NCBI RefSeq assembly: GCF_000090965.1
Contig: NC_008513.1
Location: 330,001-362,000 of the forward strand
DNA from: Candidatus Saccharimonadota bacterium
GTDB taxonomy: Bacteria; Pseudomonadota; Gammaproteobacteria; Enterobacterales; Enterobacteriaceae
Length of the DNA: 32,000 nucleotides
Direction: 5' to 3'
The notes below the pieces were generated by a model that saw only the letters and a list, made by a program, of their open reading frames with translations, had not been told where the DNA came from and did no database searches. The stretch's first letter is position 1. Each line of letters starts with the position of its first letter. Position numbers and translations under genes: made by a program. Below are positions 1,724-9,901 of the stretch, in pieces.

Positions 1724-2326
1724 ATGAATAATATTAAAAAAAAAAATCAACAAAAAAACAATTTACTTATACCATTTGTAATTGAAAAAACAAATCATGG
1801 AGAAAGATCATATGATATATTTTCTAAATTATTAAAAGAAAGAATAATTTTTATTACTGGGATAATCGATGATAATATCGCTAGTATTGTTATATCTCAA
1901 ATATTATTTCTAGAATCAGAAAATAAAAAAAAAGATATTTTTATATACATAAATTCTCCTGGAGGTATTATAACATCAGGATTATCAATTTATGATACTA
2001 TGCAATTTGTTCAACCTAAAATTAATACAATATGTATTGGACAAGCGGTCTATGCAGCTATATTATTATGTTCAGGAAACAAAGGAAAAAGATTTAGTTT
2101 ACCTCATGCTAGAATTATGTTACATCAACCATTAGGTGGTTTTAAAGGACAAGCATCAGATATTATGATACACGCTCAAGAAATAAAAAAAATAAAAAAA
2201 ATAATAAATAACTTATTATCTTATCATACCAAACAACCAATCAAAAAAATAAAAAAAGATACAGAACGTGATTACTTTTTTTCAGCACAAGAAGCTATTA
2301 AGTATGGTTTAATTGATTCTTTTTAA
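1724..2326 (+). CDS. clpP: ATP-dependent Clp protease proteolytic subunit; the reading frame is intact but the catalytic Ser is missing (see finding)
   Basis: 200-aa ORF collinear with E. coli ClpP ([72 protein letters not shown]). The active-site stretch reads [10 protein letters not shown] instead of GQAASMGAFLL. Confidence 0.9.
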
Positions 2327-2378: not shown

Positions 2379-3641
2379 ATGGATAATACAATTGATAATC
2401 AAGATATTATATTATGTTCTTTTTGCAAAAAAAATCAAAAAAAAACAAAAAAAATGATTACCGGTCTATCAGGACATATTTGTGACCAATGTATTTTACT
2501 GTGTTATGATATTCTAAATAAAAATAAATTTCAAAAAAACAAAAAAAAAATTAAATTATATACACCAAAAATTATAAAAGAATATTTAGACAAATTTATT
2601 ATAGGTCAAAAAAAAGCAAAAAAAATAATTTCAGTAGCTGTATATAATCATTATAAAAAAATTAATTATTTATTAAAAAAAAATCGTTCCCTAGAATTGG
2701 GAAAAAGTAATATTTTAATTATAGGACCTACTGGAACTGGAAAAACTTTAATAGCTGAAACATTAGCAAAATATTTAAAAGTACCATTCGCTATAGCAGA
2801 TGCTACTACTCTTACAGAAGCAGGATATGTAGGAGAAGATGTTGAAAATATTTTAAGAAAATTAATAGAAAACAGTAATTTTGATATAAATAAAGCAGAA
2901 AAAGGTATTATATATATTGATGAAATTGATAAAATTACAAAAAAATCAGAAAATCTTTCAATTACTCGTGATGTTTCAGGAGAAGGTGTACAACAATCAT
3001 TACTTAAAATAATAGAAGGAACTATTGCATCAGTTCCAATAAAAGGAACAAGGAAACATCCACAACAAGAAACATGGAAAATAAATACCTCAAAAATTTT
3101 ATTTATTTGCGGCGGATCTTTTTTTGGATTAACAAAAATTTTATCTAATCGTTTAAATAAAACATCTAATATTGGATTTAACAAAAAAATTAAAAAAATA
3201 AAAAAAAACAAAAAAAAAAACAATTATTTAAATAAAATACAACCACAAGATTTAATAAAATTTGGTTTAATTCCAGAATTTATTAGCAGATTACCAATTA
3301 TTGTTACATTAAAAAGTCTAAAAAAAAGTGATCTAATTAAAATACTCTGTAAACCGAAAAATGCTCTTATAAAACAATATAAAAAGTTGTTTTCTTTAGA
3401 AAAAGTAAAATTAAAATTTGATAATACAGCTCTAAAAGAAATTGCAAAATATGCTATTAAAAAAAAAACAGGGGCAAGAGGATTACGATCAATATTAGAA
3501 TCAGTTTTATTAAACACCATGTATAAAATACCTACATTTAAAAACATAAAAAGTATACATATTGATTCTTCTGTTATAAAAGGAATTCATCCGCCAAAAT
3601 TATTTTTTTTAAAAAAAAAAACAAAAAAAAATAATATATAA
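2379..3641 (+). CDS. clpX: ATP-dependent Clp protease ATP-binding subunit ClpX
   Basis: 420-aa ORF. It keeps the N-terminal zinc finger (CSFC...CDQC), Walker A (GPTGTGKT), pore-1 loop (GYVGEDV), Walker B (IIYIDEIDK), the IGF ClpP-docking loop (SNIGFN) and the sensor region (TGARGLRSI). Collinear with E. coli ClpX. Confidence 0.97.
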
Positions 3642-3748: not shown

Positions 3749-6097
3749 ATGAATGCTGGGTATTCTAAAAATGTTGATATTCCAATATTACCCTTACGGG
3801 ATATTGTAATTTATCCGTATATGGTTACTCCTTTATTTATTGGTCGAAAAAATTCAATCAAATGTATAGAATTTTCTATGCAAACTAATAAAAAAATACT
3901 TTTAATCACACAAAAAGAACCAACTATAGAAAATCCAAAAAAAAATGATTTATTTAAAATTGGTACTATAGCAAAAATCTTACAAATATTAAATTTGCCA
4001 GATGGAACTGTAAAAATTTTAGTTAAGGGAAAAAAAAGAGCAAAAATAGAAAAAATAAAAAAAAATAATAATTATTATTTAGCAAATATAAAATTTATTA
4101 AGCCTATTAAAATTGAAAAAAAAGAAAAAACAGTACTTATAAAAACAACAATAAAACAATTTAAAAAATATATTCAATTAAATAAAAAAATTTCATTAGA
4201 AACATTAGATAAATTAAAAAAAATTAAAGATATTGAAAAATTTAGCGATATATTAGCATATCAAATGCCTTTAAAAACAAAAGATAAACAAAAACTATTA
4301 GAAATGTTTAATACTAATAAACGTTTAGAATTTTTAATAGGAATTATGGAATCAGAAATTGAATTATTAAATATAGAAAAACGCATAAGAAATAGAATTA
4401 AAAAACAAACAGAAAAAAATCAAAGAGAATATTTTTTAACTGAACAAATTAAAGCAATACAAAAAGAATTAGGTGATATAGAAAATTCTATTGATGAACA
4501 TGAAAAATTAAAAAAAAAAATAAATTTAGCAAAAATGCCTAAAGAAGCAAAAAAAAAAGCACAGAATGAATTAAGAAGATTACGAATGATGTCACCTTTA
4601 TCAGCTGAATCTACAGTAGTAAGAAATTATATTGAATGGATAATACAAATTCCTTGGTGTAAAAAAAGTAAAATAAAAAAAAATATTCATATTGCTCAAA
4701 AAATATTAAATAATGATCATTTTGGACTTAATAATGTCAAAGAAAATATCTTAGAATATTTAGCAGTTCAAAATAGAAAAAGAAAAATAAAAGGTCCAAT
4801 TTTATGTTTAGTTGGTCCTCCAGGAATTGGAAAAACTTCTTTAGGAAAATCTATTGCACGTGCTACAGGAAGAAAATATATACGTATGGCATTAGGAGGA
4901 ATTAGAGATGAAGCTGAAATAAGAGGACATAGGAGAACCTATATTGGTTCCATGCCAGGAAAATTAATGCAAAAAATAGTAAAATCAGGTGTAAAAAACC
5001 CTCTTTTTTTACTAGATGAAATAGATAAAATGGCATTTGATATACGTATTGATCCAGCCGCTGCATTACTAGAAGTACTAGATTCAGAACAAAATAATTC
5101 TTTTAATGATCATTATTTAGAAATTGACTATGATTTATCAGAAGTTATGTTTATTGCTACATCTAATACTATGAATATACCAACACCATTATTAGATCGA
5201 ATGGAAATTATAAGATTGTCTGGATATACTGAAGAAGAAAAAATAAATATTGCTAAAAAATATTTACAACCAAAACAAATGAAACAAAATGCTTTAAAGA
5301 AAAAAGAATTATGTATTCAAGATAACGCTTTTACAGATATAATTAGATATTATACTCGAGAATCAGGAGTAAGAAATTTAGAAAGAGCAATTTCAAAAAT
5401 TTGTCGAAAATCTGTTAAAAAAATATTATTAGATACTAAAATTAGTGATATTGTGGTAAATAAAAAAAATTTAAAAAAATATTTAGGTATAAAAAAATAT
5501 GAATATGGGAAAACAAATAAAAAAAATCATATTGGACAAGTAGTAGGACTAGCATGGACAGAAATGGGGGGCGATCTATTAACTATTGAATGTTCATGTG
5601 TACCAGGTAAGGGAAAATTGATATACACTGGATCTCTTGGAAAAGTTATGCAAGAGTCTATACAAACAGCTTTAACAGTTGTTAGATCACAAGCTAATAA
5701 ATTAAATATTAAAAAAAATTTTTATAATAAAAATGATATACATATACATGTACCAGAAGGAGCAACACCAAAAGACGGACCTAGTGCAGGAGTAGCAATG
5801 TGTACAGCTATAGTATCCTGTCTTACAAATAATCCTGTCTTATCATGTATTGCTATGACTGGAGAAATTACATTAAGAGGAAAAGTATTAAATATTGGTG
5901 GACTTAAAGAAAAATTGTTAGCTGCTCATAGAGGTGGTGTAAAAAAAGTGTTTATTCCTTATGGAAATAAAAAAGATTTATCTGAAATACCTAAAAATAT
6001 ACTCTCTAAATTATATATACATAAAATAAAAAACATAGAAGAAATTTTTATTCTAGCTTTAGAAAAAAATCCTTATATAAGACATATAAATAAATAA
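3749..6097 (+). CDS. lon: ATP-dependent Lon protease
   Basis: 782-aa ORF. Walker A is GPPGIGKTS, the catalytic Ser motif is PKDGPSAGVAM and the catalytic Lys context is IGGLKEKLLAAHRGG. Collinear with E. coli Lon over its full length. Confidence 0.97.
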   Translation: MNAGYSKNVDIPILPLRDIVIYPYMVTPLFIGRKNSIKCIEFSMQTNKKILLITQKEPTIENPKKNDLFKIGTIAKILQILNLPDGTVKILVKGKKRAKIEKIKKNNNYYLANIKFIKPIKIEKKEKTVLIKTTIKQFKKYIQLNKKISLETLDKLKKIKDIEKFSDILAYQMPLKTKDKQKLLEMFNTNKRLEFLIGIMESEIELLNIEKRIRNRIKKQTEKNQREYFLTEQIKAIQKELGDIENSIDEHEKLKKKINLAKMPKEAKKKAQNELRRLRMMSPLSAESTVVRNYIEWIIQIPWCKKSKIKKNIHIAQKILNNDHFGLNNVKENILEYLAVQNRKRKIKGPILCLVGPPGIGKTSLGKSIARATGRKYIRMALGGIRDEAEIRGHRRTYIGSMPGKLMQKIVKSGVKNPLFLLDEIDKMAFDIRIDPAAALLEVLDSEQNNSFNDHYLEIDYDLSEVMFIATSNTMNIPTPLLDRMEIIRLSGYTEEEKINIAKKYLQPKQMKQNALKKKELCIQDNAFTDIIRYYTRESGVRNLERAISKICRKSVKKILLDTKISDIVVNKKNLKKYLGIKKYEYGKTNKKNHIGQVVGLAWTEMGGDLLTIECSCVPGKGKLIYTGSLGKVMQESIQTALTVVRSQANKLNIKKNFYNKNDIHIHVPEGATPKDGPSAGVAMCTAIVSCLTNNPVLSCIAMTGEITLRGKVLNIGGLKEKLLAAHRGGVKKVFIPYGNKKDLSEIPKNILSKLYIHKIKNIEEIFILALEKNPYIRHINK

Positions 6098-6172: not shown

Positions 6173-6937
6173 TGAAAATTCTATTTTATAAAACTATAAA
6201 TTAGTAAACAATAAGGTTAAAATGATTAAATCATCTTTAAAAAATTTTTATAAAAAAAAAATTTTAATAATAATTACTATAGTTATTACATCTTCAATAA
6301 TATTAAGTAGTTTATCTAGTTTTTTTATACAAAAAAGATCATTACCGATCTTAACAGTAAATCAAGAAAAAATATATCCTGAAGTATTAAAATTAATTTA
6401 TAAAATAATAAAAAAAAAACAAAATAAAACAATTAAAGAAATATTTTTAAAAATAATATCTAAAGAAGAATACAAAAAATATATTTTTCAACAAATAATT
6501 ATAGATGTTATAAACGAATCTCTTTTAAAAGAATACATTAAAGATATAAATTTTTATATTTCAAAAAAGAACATTAAAAAAATTATATATTCTTCAAAAA
6601 ATTTTAAAAAAAAAAAAAAAATCAATTATAAGAAATATTTAAAATTTATTAATTATATACAATACACACATAATGAATATATAAATTCATTACAAAAAAA
6701 AATATCTGTAAAATATCTTATAAAACTCTTATCTAAATCTATTATTCTACTAAAAAAAGAAATTCATAATAAATTAAAAAAAATTATTGAAAGAAAAAAC
6801 ATACAAGTAATTCATTTTAATACTAAATTAAACAAATTAGAAAAAAAAAAAAATAAATCAAAAATAAAAAAATATTTTTTATTAAATAAAAAAAAATTTT
6901 ATTACCCAGAATCTTGTATTATAAAAATAATTCATTT

Positions 6938-6953
6938 AAAAAAAAAAAAAAAA
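6938..6953 (+). repeat. A16 homopolymer; site of ppiD frameshift 1 (frame 0 to frame 2)
   Basis: Counted 16 consecutive A. The upstream frame ends at TAA (6954-6956). The PpiD-like reading continues one base earlier (AGT AAT ATA... = SNIKNNFINFY). Confidence 0.85.
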
Positions 6954-7003
6954 TAAGTAATATAAAAAATAATTTCATTAATTTTTATTTAAAAAACATT
7001 AAT

Positions 7004-7014
7004 AAAAAAAAAAA
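7004..7014 (+). repeat. A11 homopolymer; site of ppiD frameshift 2 (frame 2 to frame 1)
   Basis: Frame 2 stops at 7049-7051. Frame 1 is open from 7006 and carries the PpiD-homologous sequence, so the overlap of the two open frames contains this A11 run. Confidence 0.75.
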
Positions 7015-7517
7015 TATAAAAAATATAAAATTTTACAAACTAATAGTTTAAAAAATGCAAAATTTTTATTAAACAAATTAAAAGAACAAAAAAAAAAAAA
7101 AAAATCATATAAATTCAATAATTTAAATAAAAACTTTAATTTAATATCTTTAGGCTGGATAAATAAAAAAAAAGTACCGAATTATATCAAAAAATTAAAA
7201 TTAAAAAAAAATAAAGATTATTCGAAAATAATATTTTATAAAAAAAATTTTTTTATTTTTTTTCTAGATTCAATTTATAAATCCAAGTTAAATAAAAATA
7301 ATATTAAAAATACTAAAATAATAAAAAAAATAAAAAATAATAATTATTTTTTTGAAAAAAAATTTTTTAAACAATCTATTAATAACACAATAAAAATAAA
7401 AAATAAAAAATTAGAAAATTTATTTATTAAAAAAAACATAAAAATATTTAAAACAAAACCAATTAATTATCAAAATATAATGAAACATAAATATTTAAAA
7501 AATTTAAGGATGTATAT

Positions 7518-7535
7518 AAAAAAAAAATTTTTTTT
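7518..7535 (+). repeat. A10 followed by T8; site of ppiD frameshift 3 (frame 1 to frame 0)
   Basis: Frame 1 stops at 7537-7539. Frame 0 is open from 7491 and carries the PpiD C-terminal homology from about 7542. The switch must therefore lie in the A10 (7518-7527) or T8 (7528-7535) run. Confidence 0.7.
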
Positions 7536-8176
7536 ATAAAAAATCTATTCAAAATAATTCAAAAATCCATATTTATAAAAAAAAAAAATAATGATATTTA
7601 TTTACTACAGATACACTCATATACCTCAAAAAAACTACAAAATAAAAAAACAATATATAAAAAAATTTTAAATATTTTAAATCTTAAAGAAAAAAACAAA
7701 AAAAATTATTTAAAAATAAAAGATTTCTTTTTAACACCAATGAATCAAAAAAAAAAATTTTTACAAAAAAATTCTGTATATTTATATAATAGTCAAACAT
7801 TATCAAGACAAAATTATGAAGAAATAATGCAAATACTTAATAATTTACCTCCAATAAAAAAAAATCATTATATATATTTATTATATAAACAAAAAAATAA
7901 AAAATATGAATTAATTATCATTAAAAAAGAATTTTTTAAAAAAATTGAAAAAAATGAAAAAAAAACCATTATTAAAAATATAAAAAAATATTTAAAAACA
8001 AAAACAATTAATAATATTTTAAATAGTTTATATAAAAAATCAAAAATTATTCTGAATTTTAATCAAACAAAATAAATTTTAGTATTTAAATAAAATTAAT
8101 TTATTTAAAAAAAAATTAATTATTTACTTTATTTTCAAAAAAAAAAAATTCATTTTTTATAAAATAAGGAAAAATT

Positions 8177-9901
8177 ATGGAAATATTTAAAAAATTAAAA
8201 TGGTATTTTTTTCAGGAATGGAAAAAATATATAGGAACAATCGTAATATTAATTTGTATAACATTGTTACAATTATTACCATCAAAAATTATTGGTATTA
8301 CTATTGATTTAATTTTAAATAATAAAATATCAACATATAATGTATTTCTAAAATTATTAAAAATAATTTTTATATCTATAATAATTTATATACTAAGATA
8401 TTTTTGGAAAATTTTATTATTTAGTACATCTTATAATTTAACTTCAGAATTAAGAAAAAAATTTTGTAAATCACTATTAAAAAAAGATTTTTATTTTTTC
8501 TCGAAATATAAAAATGGTGATTTAATTACTAGAATTACAAATGATATTGATCGAGTAGTATTTTCTACTGGAGAAGGTATATTAACTATTATTGATTCAA
8601 TTATAGTTGGGTTTTCAATATTTTTTATGATGTGTATACAAACTAATTGGAAATTAACTGTATTTTCATTAATTCCAATGCCTATTATGGCGTATGTAAT
8701 AAAAGGATATGGAATTCAGTTATATAAAAATTTTCAAAAATCACAAAAATATTTTTCTTTATTAAATAATCAAGCACAAGATAGTTTAAATAATATAAAA
8801 ATGATACGAAATTTCGGATTAGAAAAATCAGAAATAAAAAAATTTTCTTTAATAAATAATTTAGTAAAAAAAAAAGATTTTCAAGTATCTAAAATTGATT
8901 CTAAAATTGAACCTATCATTCATAATTCTATTGCTTTGTCTAATTTATTTGCAATCTTAGGTGGAAGTTATTTAATTTCAAAAAAACAAATAACTTTTGG
9001 TCAATTAACTAGTTTTATTTTATATTTAGGATCTATGATTTGGCCTATATTAGCATTTGCATGGATGTTTAATATTCTTAGTAGAGGAAAAGTATCATTA
9101 AAAAGAATATATGAAATTATTGAAATGAAAAAAAAAAAAAACAAAAAAAAAGAATATAACATTAATTATAATAAAAACAATTTAAAAATAAAAATAAAAA
9201 AATTTTATTATCCAAATAGAAATAAAAATTCATTAAAAAACATAAAAATAAAGATACCTAATAAAACAACTTTAGGTATATGTGGACCTACAGGATCGAC
9301 TTTATTCGATATTCAAAGATATTTTGAAATACCAAATGGATATATTAATTATAATAAACAAAATATTAAAAATATACCAATTAAAAAATGGCGTAATATT
9401 ATTTCAATTGTTAATCAACAACCATTTTTATTTTCTGACAATATTTTAAATAATATCTCTTTTGGAAATTCAAAAGCTACATTTAAAGAAATAAAATATG
9501 CAGCAAAATTGGCATGTATACATTCTGAAATAAAAAAATTACCTAAAGGATATCAAACAAATATTGGAGAAAAAGGTATTAAATTATCAGGAGGACAAAA
9601 ACAAAGAATCACAATAGCCAGAGCATTTCTGTTTCCTTGTAAAATTTTCATATTAGATGATCCTTTATCATCTGTAGATCATAATACAGAAAGAAAAATA
9701 ATAAAAAATATTTATAAACACACAAAAAAATATCAATTAACCACAATAGTAATTACACATAGATTATCAATATTGAAAAAATTTAAAAAAATTATTGTTT
9801 TAAAAAACGGAAAAATTTTACAAAAAGGATCACATAACAAACTATTATCTGAAAATAATTGGTATCGTAATATGTATAATTATCAAAAATATAAGATATA
9901 A
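8177..9901 (+). CDS. mdlA: ABC exporter MdlA (permease fused to ATPase); the Walker A motif is truncated (see finding)
   Basis: 574-aa ORF collinear with E. coli MdlA (LKWYFFQEWKKYIGT vs LSWYFRREWRRYLGA; TNDIDRVVFSTGEG; GQLTSFILYLGSMIWP). The nucleotide-binding domain has the signature LSGGQKQR, Walker B IFILDDPLSSVD and the H-loop THRLS. Walker A reads GPTGS-TLF instead of GPTGSGKSTLL. Confidence 0.9.
   Translation: MEIFKKLKWYFFQEWKKYIGTIVILICITLLQLLPSKIIGITIDLILNNKISTYNVFLKLLKIIFISIIIYILRYFWKILLFSTSYNLTSELRKKFCKSLLKKDFYFFSKYKNGDLITRITNDIDRVVFSTGEGILTIIDSIIVGFSIFFMMCIQTNWKLTVFSLIPMPIMAYVIKGYGIQLYKNFQKSQKYFSLLNNQAQDSLNNIKMIRNFGLEKSEIKKFSLINNLVKKKDFQVSKIDSKIEPIIHNSIALSNLFAILGGSYLISKKQITFGQLTSFILYLGSMIWPILAFAWMFNILSRGKVSLKRIYEIIEMKKKKNKKKEYNINYNKNNLKIKIKKFYYPNRNKNSLKNIKIKIPNKTTLGICGPTGSTLFDIQRYFEIPNGYINYNKQNIKNIPIKKWRNIISIVNQQPFLFSDNILNNISFGNSKATFKEIKYAAKLACIHSEIKKLPKGYQTNIGEKGIKLSGGQKQRITIARAFLFPCKIFILDDPLSSVDHNTERKIIKNIYKHTKKYQLTTIVITHRLSILKKFKKIIVLKNGKILQKGSHNKLLSENNWYRNMYNYQKYKI

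Follow-up and report, generated by a model that had tools for sequence, protein, structure and literature searches.

The clpP gene deposited for Buchnera aphidicola BCc lacks its catalytic serine codon, beside an apparently functional clpX

ClpP makes up MEROPS family S14 (Pfam PF00574; NCBIfam NF001368 / TIGR00493), and forms of it that cannot catalyse are known. The engineered Escherichia coli ClpP Ser97Ala ‘trap’ is wild-type ClpP in every other respect, with the nucleophile removed and with active ClpX as its partner; a Ser-to-Ala ClpP combined with active ClpX is a substrate trap and should be costly. ClpR is an old, separate paralogue that combines with active ClpP into mixed rings, and in most cases no residue of its catalytic triad is left. 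The ClpR proteins are non-catalytic ClpP paralogues of cyanobacteria, plastids and apicoplasts (PMC7966870; PMC6508832).

The clpP gene considered here lies in a stretch of 32,000 nucleotides, called the window below. [quoted passage not shown] The window carries bolA, clpP, clpX, lon, a broken ppiD, mdlA, mdlB and the SRP RNA, further dnaX, ybaB, htpG, adk, folD, cysS and the 5S and 23S rRNA genes, and also aroE, def, fmt and a block of ribosomal-protein genes with rpoA; names from aroE to rpsM were taken from the Pfam labels of the syntenic genes of relatives. We observed in passing that folD is kept in BCc and in two other relatives, while between cysS and adk no folD was called or found by BLAST in the Buchnera of Cinara cuneomaculata (L087 11414-11854) and C. 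piceae (L090 11411-11719); some Cinara Buchnera have apparently lost the gene.

The BCc protein scored 297.2 bits with the NF001368 profile (cut-off 249) and thus belongs to the family. With TIGR00493 it reached 287 bits, under the equivalog cut-off of 308.6, as did five of six intact relatives (294-308.5), the sixth (P0007) being above it with 309.2. It is 77-84% identical to the ClpPs of Cinara-Buchnera and ∼65-70% identical to the E. coli ClpP structures, and PDB ClpP chains were matched with E = 1e-78 to 1e-80. By descent, as judged from sequence, the gene is the Buchnera clpP orthologue, yet its predicted product fails the test that defines the peptidase family, the catalytic serine. The features concerned are as follows.

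1724..2326, forward strand: clpP ORF, 200 aa, the syntenic Buchnera clpP orthologue in bolA-clpP-clpX-lon
2045..2056, forward strand: lesion block GCG GTC TAT GCA (A V Y A), replacing ancestral GCT TGT TC[A/T] ATG GCA (A C S M A)
2049..2054, forward strand: TCTATG, the former Ser-Met codons, kept in the sequence one base (+1) out of frame
2123..2125, forward strand: codon CAT of His134, the catalytic His, intact (E. coli His136 in the precursor, His122 in the mature protein)
2270..2272, forward strand: codon GAT of Asp183, the catalytic Asp, intact (E. coli Asp185 in the precursor, Asp171 in the mature protein)

Positions 2039-2062 read in frame GGA CAA GCG GTC TAT GCA GCT ATA, that is G106 Q107 A108 V109 Y110 A111 A112 I113. 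In a first alignment all 19 other ClpPs had GQACSM[A/G] or GQASSMA at this site. In an alignment of the 119 closest homologues BCc alone was without the serine and one residue shorter (GQAV-YAAIL versus GQ[AS]xS[MI]), and GQxxS[M/I] was kept in 118 of the 118 other ClpPs. A HMMER alignment to E. coli ClpP structures placed a gap opposite Ser111 of the precursor, i.e. Ser97 of the mature protein. Thus, the claim of the earlier note that the catalytic serine was lost, with the protein one residue shorter, is borne out, as is its reading of TCTATG as lying one base out of frame. The author of that note had named an offset in the active-site alignment as what would undo the claim; we looked for it, and the gap sits on the E. 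coli catalytic serine with no alternative alignment in BCc ClpP that would supply a nearby one, the next serine being 10 residues downstream. No second ClpP on the BCc contig was found among the 120 best ClpP matches, which include one protein from that contig. As deposited, BCc ClpP would be incapable of serine peptidase activity, given the established catalysis by ClpP, since the nucleophile of the Ser-His-Asp triad is gone. An AlphaFold2 model of the protein, built from a 20-sequence alignment, had a mean pLDDT of 50 and was discarded.

A different kind of anomaly was seen in an unrelated ClpP from an ENA metagenome contig of 62.5% G+C (L002, 1143-2039). This protein of 298 aa has an internal tandem repeat of ~90 residues, with the stretch from LRFALPNAR to FLTAEAAK present twice; it is unrelated to Buchnera, and the repeat is probably an assembly duplication.

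One could imagine that the activity is rescued in BCc, either because TCT ATG is read through recoding, ribosomal or transcriptional, or because another residue is the nucleophile, and it is true that TCTATG persists one base out of frame and that BCc has a specific Ala>Ser replacement at residue 117 (LLCSG). Recoding would require a +1 shift and then a -1 shift two codons on, and neither site has a slippery sequence or a homopolymer; Ser117, ten residues from the nucleophile position, is implausible as a substitute. We give rescue of either kind hardly any credence.

The reading that we put first, and hold only tentatively, is a genuine, young, in-frame inactivation of clpP on the BCc chromosome. 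It would have required the loss of 2 nt (TT) with a T>G change right after GC, just upstream of the Ser codon, and the loss of 1 nt just downstream of the Met codon, within GG of ATGGCA. The Cys-Ser-Met codons would have been turned into Val-Tyr, with the nucleophile removed and the nucleophile elbow shortened by one residue. A homo-oligomeric ClpP of this kind would then have no serine peptidase activity, as expected from the established mechanism of ClpP. With a net change of -3 nt the ORF would have stayed open and the gene would have been annotated as functional, a cryptic loss of function in a visibly eroding genome.

We reconstructed the indel path with the clpP orthologues of five Cinara-Buchnera as comparison DNA, scoring explicit gap models against them. 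The orthologues have GCx TGT TC[A/T] ATG GCx GCx ATA where BCc has GCG GTC TAT GCA GCT ATA. A model with 2 nt lost after GC and 1 nt lost in the GG of ATGGCA required one substitution if the ancestral codon was TCT and two if it was TCA; the best model with a single 3-nt gap required 5-6 substitutions. The compensated -2/-1 frameshift proposed earlier (two indels with 1-2 substitutions against one indel with 5-6) is thus supported as by far the most economical path on the sequences compared. The scoring of explicit gap models is what reveals this path, since the default MAFFT nucleotide alignment presents the lesion as a single 3-nt gap and masks the frameshift. The codons concerned otherwise hardly vary: a single conservative Cys/Ser replacement (GQASSM, in the Buchnera of Periphyllus, P0016) was seen among all Buchnera examined. 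The earlier note had also held that neither indel lies in a homopolymer run; this is correct inasmuch as there is no long homopolymer, but the 1-nt loss is within GG and the upstream loss is beside TT.

With the -2 event alone BCc ClpP would stop 14 codons later; therefore, the frame was restored by a second deletion, or a single complex event produced the two together. It was also observed that the 8-mer CGGTCTAT across the lesion junction (2047-2054) is repeated 415 nt downstream in clpX (2462-2469), where the codons ACC GGT CTA TCA form a run specific to BCc. Any such repeat within +/-600 nt has a probability of about 0.03 by chance. The suggestive repeat led us to consider that the -2/T>G change was templated from clpX by a template switch, an origin that we did not adopt; with P about 0.03, coincidence is possible.

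Some properties of the lesion fit less well with a genuine loss. The T>G change at the junction makes the rare codons GCG and GTC, contrary to the AT mutational bias of the genome. A dispensable gene would normally first take out-of-frame indels and stops, and a frame-preserving hit exactly on the nucleophile is unusual as the first lesion. It is quite possible, and is the explanation that we would place second, that the lesion is a local artefact of sequencing, finishing or cloning in the 2006 assembly (CP000263), which we take to be Sanger-based, and that living BCc has a normal GQACSMAA. A short garbled patch could have dropped 3 of about 11 bases and gone unnoticed because the ORF stayed open. 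The clustering of 3-4 base-level differences in 12 nt with unchanged flanks is in line with such an artefact, as are the rare codons produced against the mutational bias, and BCc is represented by a single deposited sequence.

Outside the lesion the protein carries no mark of decay. As the earlier note had stated, the His and Asp of the triad are conserved; both are invariant columns in the alignment, and in the alignment of 119 homologues there was no unique BCc change at columns at least 97% conserved. With the lesion masked, four-point estimates of the terminal branch of clpP were 0.065 for BCc versus 0.060-0.084 in four ingroup relatives, the outlier GCA_900128725 having 0.156; the BCc branch is 0.93 times the median of the five relatives taken together, so that there is no acceleration of rate. 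ClpP is among the slowest-evolving proteins of the window. Counts of unique deviations (13 in BCc versus 2-5 in the ingroup) had suggested an elevated rate; the elevation was gone in the masked four-point estimate, and such counts depend on the shape of the tree. Looked at as a candidate pseudogene, BCc clpP has a disabling lesion and no relaxed constraint, its ORF being open with no further stops or frameshifts.

Two differences at the ends of the protein were noted as well. BCc ClpP is without the Ser that precedes LIPFVI (1763-1783) in five of the five relatives compared at the DNA level, a position presumably near the propeptide junction of E. coli ClpP. Its C-terminus comes early (DSF*, 2315-2326), a few residues short of that of the relatives, which run on with ILKKxx.

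The earlier note had proposed a dead partner, a very recent inactivation or an artefact; the present evidence narrows the properties of these three options, each of which keeps some probability. As there is no relaxation of rate, a real lesion must be young, or ClpP must still be constrained. If clpP were simply dead, the lesion would be very young, with a rough estimate that puts it within the final few per cent of the terminal branch. The lack of acceleration and of unique changes at well-conserved columns speaks against a genuine young loss. A ClpP perfectly conserved in its remaining part, with His, Asp and the IGF loop of ClpX intact and with a rate not raised, is what an artefact in a functional gene would leave.

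The second possibility, a ClpP still under constraint, leads to another explanation: the lesion is real, and purifying selection maintains a ClpP without peptidase activity, which serves as a non-catalytic partner or scaffold. By analogy with ClpR, and as the sole ClpP detected, it might for instance bind ClpX by way of the IGF loops and tune the ATPase or unfoldase activity of ClpX. This explanation, which we judge unlikely, accounts jointly for the hit on the nucleophile, the kept frame, the slow evolution of the remainder (0.93) and the retained IGF of ClpX; a frame-restoring deletion 8 nt after a truncating one likewise suggests selection for the downstream half of the protein. On the other hand, we know of no benefit from a lone dead ClpP, and a substrate trap is expected to be costly. 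His134, Asp183 and the other highly conserved residues are unchanged, unlike in ClpR, hence the lesion cannot be old. A mixed ring of the ClpP/ClpR type would be unavailable, for no active ClpP from the BCc chromosome was found among the 120 best matches.

The neighbouring genes bear on what would remain of ATP-dependent proteolysis if ClpP were dead.

2379..3641, forward strand: clpX, 420 aa, predicted and apparently fully functional on its motifs and profile score
2415-2426 and 2481-2492, forward strand: zinc-finger Cys pairs of ClpX (C4 motif)
2724-2747, forward strand: ClpX Walker A motif
2823-2834, forward strand: ClpX GYVG motif
2907-2930, forward strand: ClpX Walker B motif
3051-3059, forward strand: ClpX RKH motif
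3171..3179, forward strand: ClpX IGF tripeptide of the ClpP-docking loop, conserved
3471-3488, forward strand: ClpX sensor-2 motif GARGLR
3749..6097, forward strand: lon, intact ORF of 782 aa, candidate for ATP-dependent proteolysis if ClpP is dead

The gene for ClpX begins 52 nt downstream of clpP. Its product keeps all these motifs and scores 604 bits against an equivalog cut-off of 359, in agreement with the earlier view that clpX looks fully functional, the IGF loop included. Under a genuine loss ClpX may act alone as an unfoldase, or may be docked on a dead chamber, and ATP-dependent proteolysis would be left to other proteases and to Lon, whose neighbouring gene is intact.

The gene ppiD, situated between lon and mdlA (6222-8075), is a clear pseudogene with frame-shifted remnants: residues 2-230 of the PpiD of a relative are matched with 58% identity, and residues 301-430, with 44%, in a different frame. 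The remainder of the gene is gone in BCc; in relatives it is whole and encodes about 610 aa. A gene broken at this place indicates that real erosion is under way around clpP.

A second lesion was found in mdlA, at the Walker A motif.

9284..9316, forward strand, within the ORF 8177..9901: mdlA lesion, GPTGS---TLFD-IQ in place of GPTGSGKTTLIRLIQ, with GKT of Walker A lost

The deposited BCc DNA at this site is GGATCGACTTTATTCGATATT, while the intact form is GGATCAGGAAAAAC and so on; the homologues have GPTG[S/C]GK[ST]TL in 119 cases out of 119. At the DNA level 9-10 contiguous nt were lost together with a further -1/-2 pair, a net change of -12 nt that leaves TTCG out of frame. Elsewhere in its nucleotide-binding domain MdlA keeps all motifs, namely the Q-loop, LSGGQ, Walker B and the H-loop. 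The Walker B of MdlA is LDD in all 120 sequences, and the signature of MdlB is LSQGQ; the complementary motifs are FDE in MdlB and LSGGQ in MdlA. Judged by what is established for heterodimeric ABC exporters, the lesion hits that ATP site of the MdlA/MdlB heterodimer which is degenerate and non-hydrolytic. This site is the most dispensable catalytic element of MdlA, other parts of which still serve the consensus site. The site is degenerate family-wide, and a real lesion would be tolerated there. The loss of mdlAB has been reported in the Buchnera of C. tujafilina (PMC3246468), and in a reappraisal of transporters MdlAB counts as the single ABC transporter conserved in BCc (PMC3246468). The transporter literature examined (PMC3246468) makes no mention of the loss of Walker A in mdlA.

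The two lesions taken together cut in several directions. Two such young lesions within 8 kb are a priori unlikely as genuine losses, and a similar second patch inside an otherwise intact nucleotide-binding domain is what a flawed assembly could contain. An artefact would need two independent multi-error patches, of which that in mdlA includes 9-10 contiguous nt lost, untypical of base-calling error; this patch coincides with the ATP site that is degenerate and most dispensable, a placement for which biology accounts and error does not. Both net changes are multiples of 3, as selection against truncation would explain; independent base-calling errors would give this with a chance of only about 1/9, unless the frame was hand-edited. 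To the idea of a maintained, non-catalytic ClpP the mdlA lesion offers a parallel: a dispensable catalytic element is lost, while the transmembrane domain and LSGGQ, which completes the consensus site of MdlB, are still needed.

In its extended form, for which we again see little likelihood, this idea says that in BCc, one of the smallest Buchnera genomes, purifying selection preserves a ClpP without peptidase activity as the only partner of a fully functional ClpX, and that an MdlA whose degenerate ATP site is without its P-loop is kept as well. Frame-preserving hits on catalytic motifs would have created pseudoenzymes whose protein bodies are still needed, and ClpX with dead ClpP would serve as a non-degradative unfoldase or holdase in a proteome under heavy mutational load.

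We assessed the quality of the assembly by a scan for indels in 20 BCc genes (about 6,700 codons) with up to seven taxa of Cinara-group Buchnera including BCc. The relatives, up to six in number, were five named Buchnera genome assemblies and an unlabelled Logan contig. A 100,274-bp contig labelled ‘MAG: Janthinobacterium lividum’ (P0132, P0245) has a CysS 59% and an MdlA 69% identical to those of BCc; the two proteins rank among those of Cinara Buchnera, and the contig looks like a Buchnera sequence under a wrong organism name.

Lineage-specific indels in invariant or nearly invariant context numbered two in the whole data set, both in BCc: the serine of clpP and the Walker A of mdlA. The 20-gene scan gave no BCc indel in invariant context in dnaX, htpG, adk, cysS, fmt, def, rpoA or the ribosomal proteins. 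BCc-specific amino-acid indels amounted to 12 in the 20 genes, against 1-3 per relative, though branch lengths in substitutions are similar; five of those outside the two lesions were checked at the DNA level and are clean codon indels in variable, Lys/Asn-rich regions. Changes in dnaX (KFIL>QIYI) and fmt (QWA>QRS) were considered as further lesions and set aside, the DNA having substitution clusters and no frameshift. In the 23S and 5S rRNA (3.1 kb) we counted six BCc-specific indels versus 2-6 in the relatives, a normal number.

An error-prone assembly should have lesions scattered irrespective of essentiality, and no such scatter was seen in the 20 genes and the rRNA. About 18 kb of further coding sequence, essential genes included, and 3.1 kb of rRNA contained no indel comparable to the two lesions, which excludes a general problem with indel errors. 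The assembly looks generally sound; an artefact would have to consist of two isolated, multi-error, frame-neutral patches. We lean towards a genuine lesion: the assembly is clean apart from the two sites, neither lesion shifts the downstream frame, that in mdlA would be tolerable and the neighbourhood is decaying; the clpP lesion would then be real and recent, and the peptidase activity lost.

A second sequence of the C. cedri Buchnera was searched for in the protein collection, the assembled-contig index, JGI metagenomes and the literature, and none was found. The exact BCc ClpX product as a probe for an independent C. cedri contig returned nothing on record, a scan of JGI metagenomes with a pattern fitting either clpP allele gave 0 hits, and in the literature searched no paper reports the missing ClpP serine or a resequencing of BCc.

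If the lesions are real, BCc is without ClpXP proteolysis despite a clpP annotated as intact, and reconstructions from gene content overstate the quality control and transport, MdlAB included, of an organism that is a reference minimal genome. It would be a natural bacterium whose only detected ClpP has no nucleophile beside an intact ClpX, which bears on ClpP-independent roles of ClpX. For a genome known to erode, this would be one further step of gene loss, and it would illustrate that genes in eroding genomes may die through frame-preserving hits on catalytic motifs ahead of visible decay. If the lesions are artefacts, two entries (clpP and mdlA) of a widely reused reference genome need correction.

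Compared with the canonical ClpP of E. coli, the BCc protein is a syntenic orthologue in which His, Asp and the other highly conserved residues are present; it differs in having no nucleophilic Ser, in an elbow one residue shorter and in a C-terminus a few residues shorter. It resembles the cryptic, ORF-intact pseudogenes and compensated frameshifts of endosymbionts in having an open ORF annotated as functional with a decayed ppiD nearby. Unlike them, BCc clpP has no relaxed constraint elsewhere, and its lesion is exactly on the catalytic residue. With the Ser97Ala trap it would share, by analogy, a nucleophile-less ClpP beside an intact ClpX. The BCc protein has in addition a one-residue deletion and the replacements Cys>Val and Met>Tyr, so that assembly and docking of ClpX are unassured. 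Like ClpR, it has the ClpP fold without a working triad in a genome that keeps a Clp ATPase. Unlike ClpR, it has lost Ser alone and retained His and Asp, it has no coexisting active paralogue among the 120 best ClpP matches, and it is the sole ClpP detected. It is a syntenic orthologue close to the Cinara-Buchnera ClpPs (77-84% identity) rather than an ancient paralogue of an anciently diverged lineage, and its lesion must be young.
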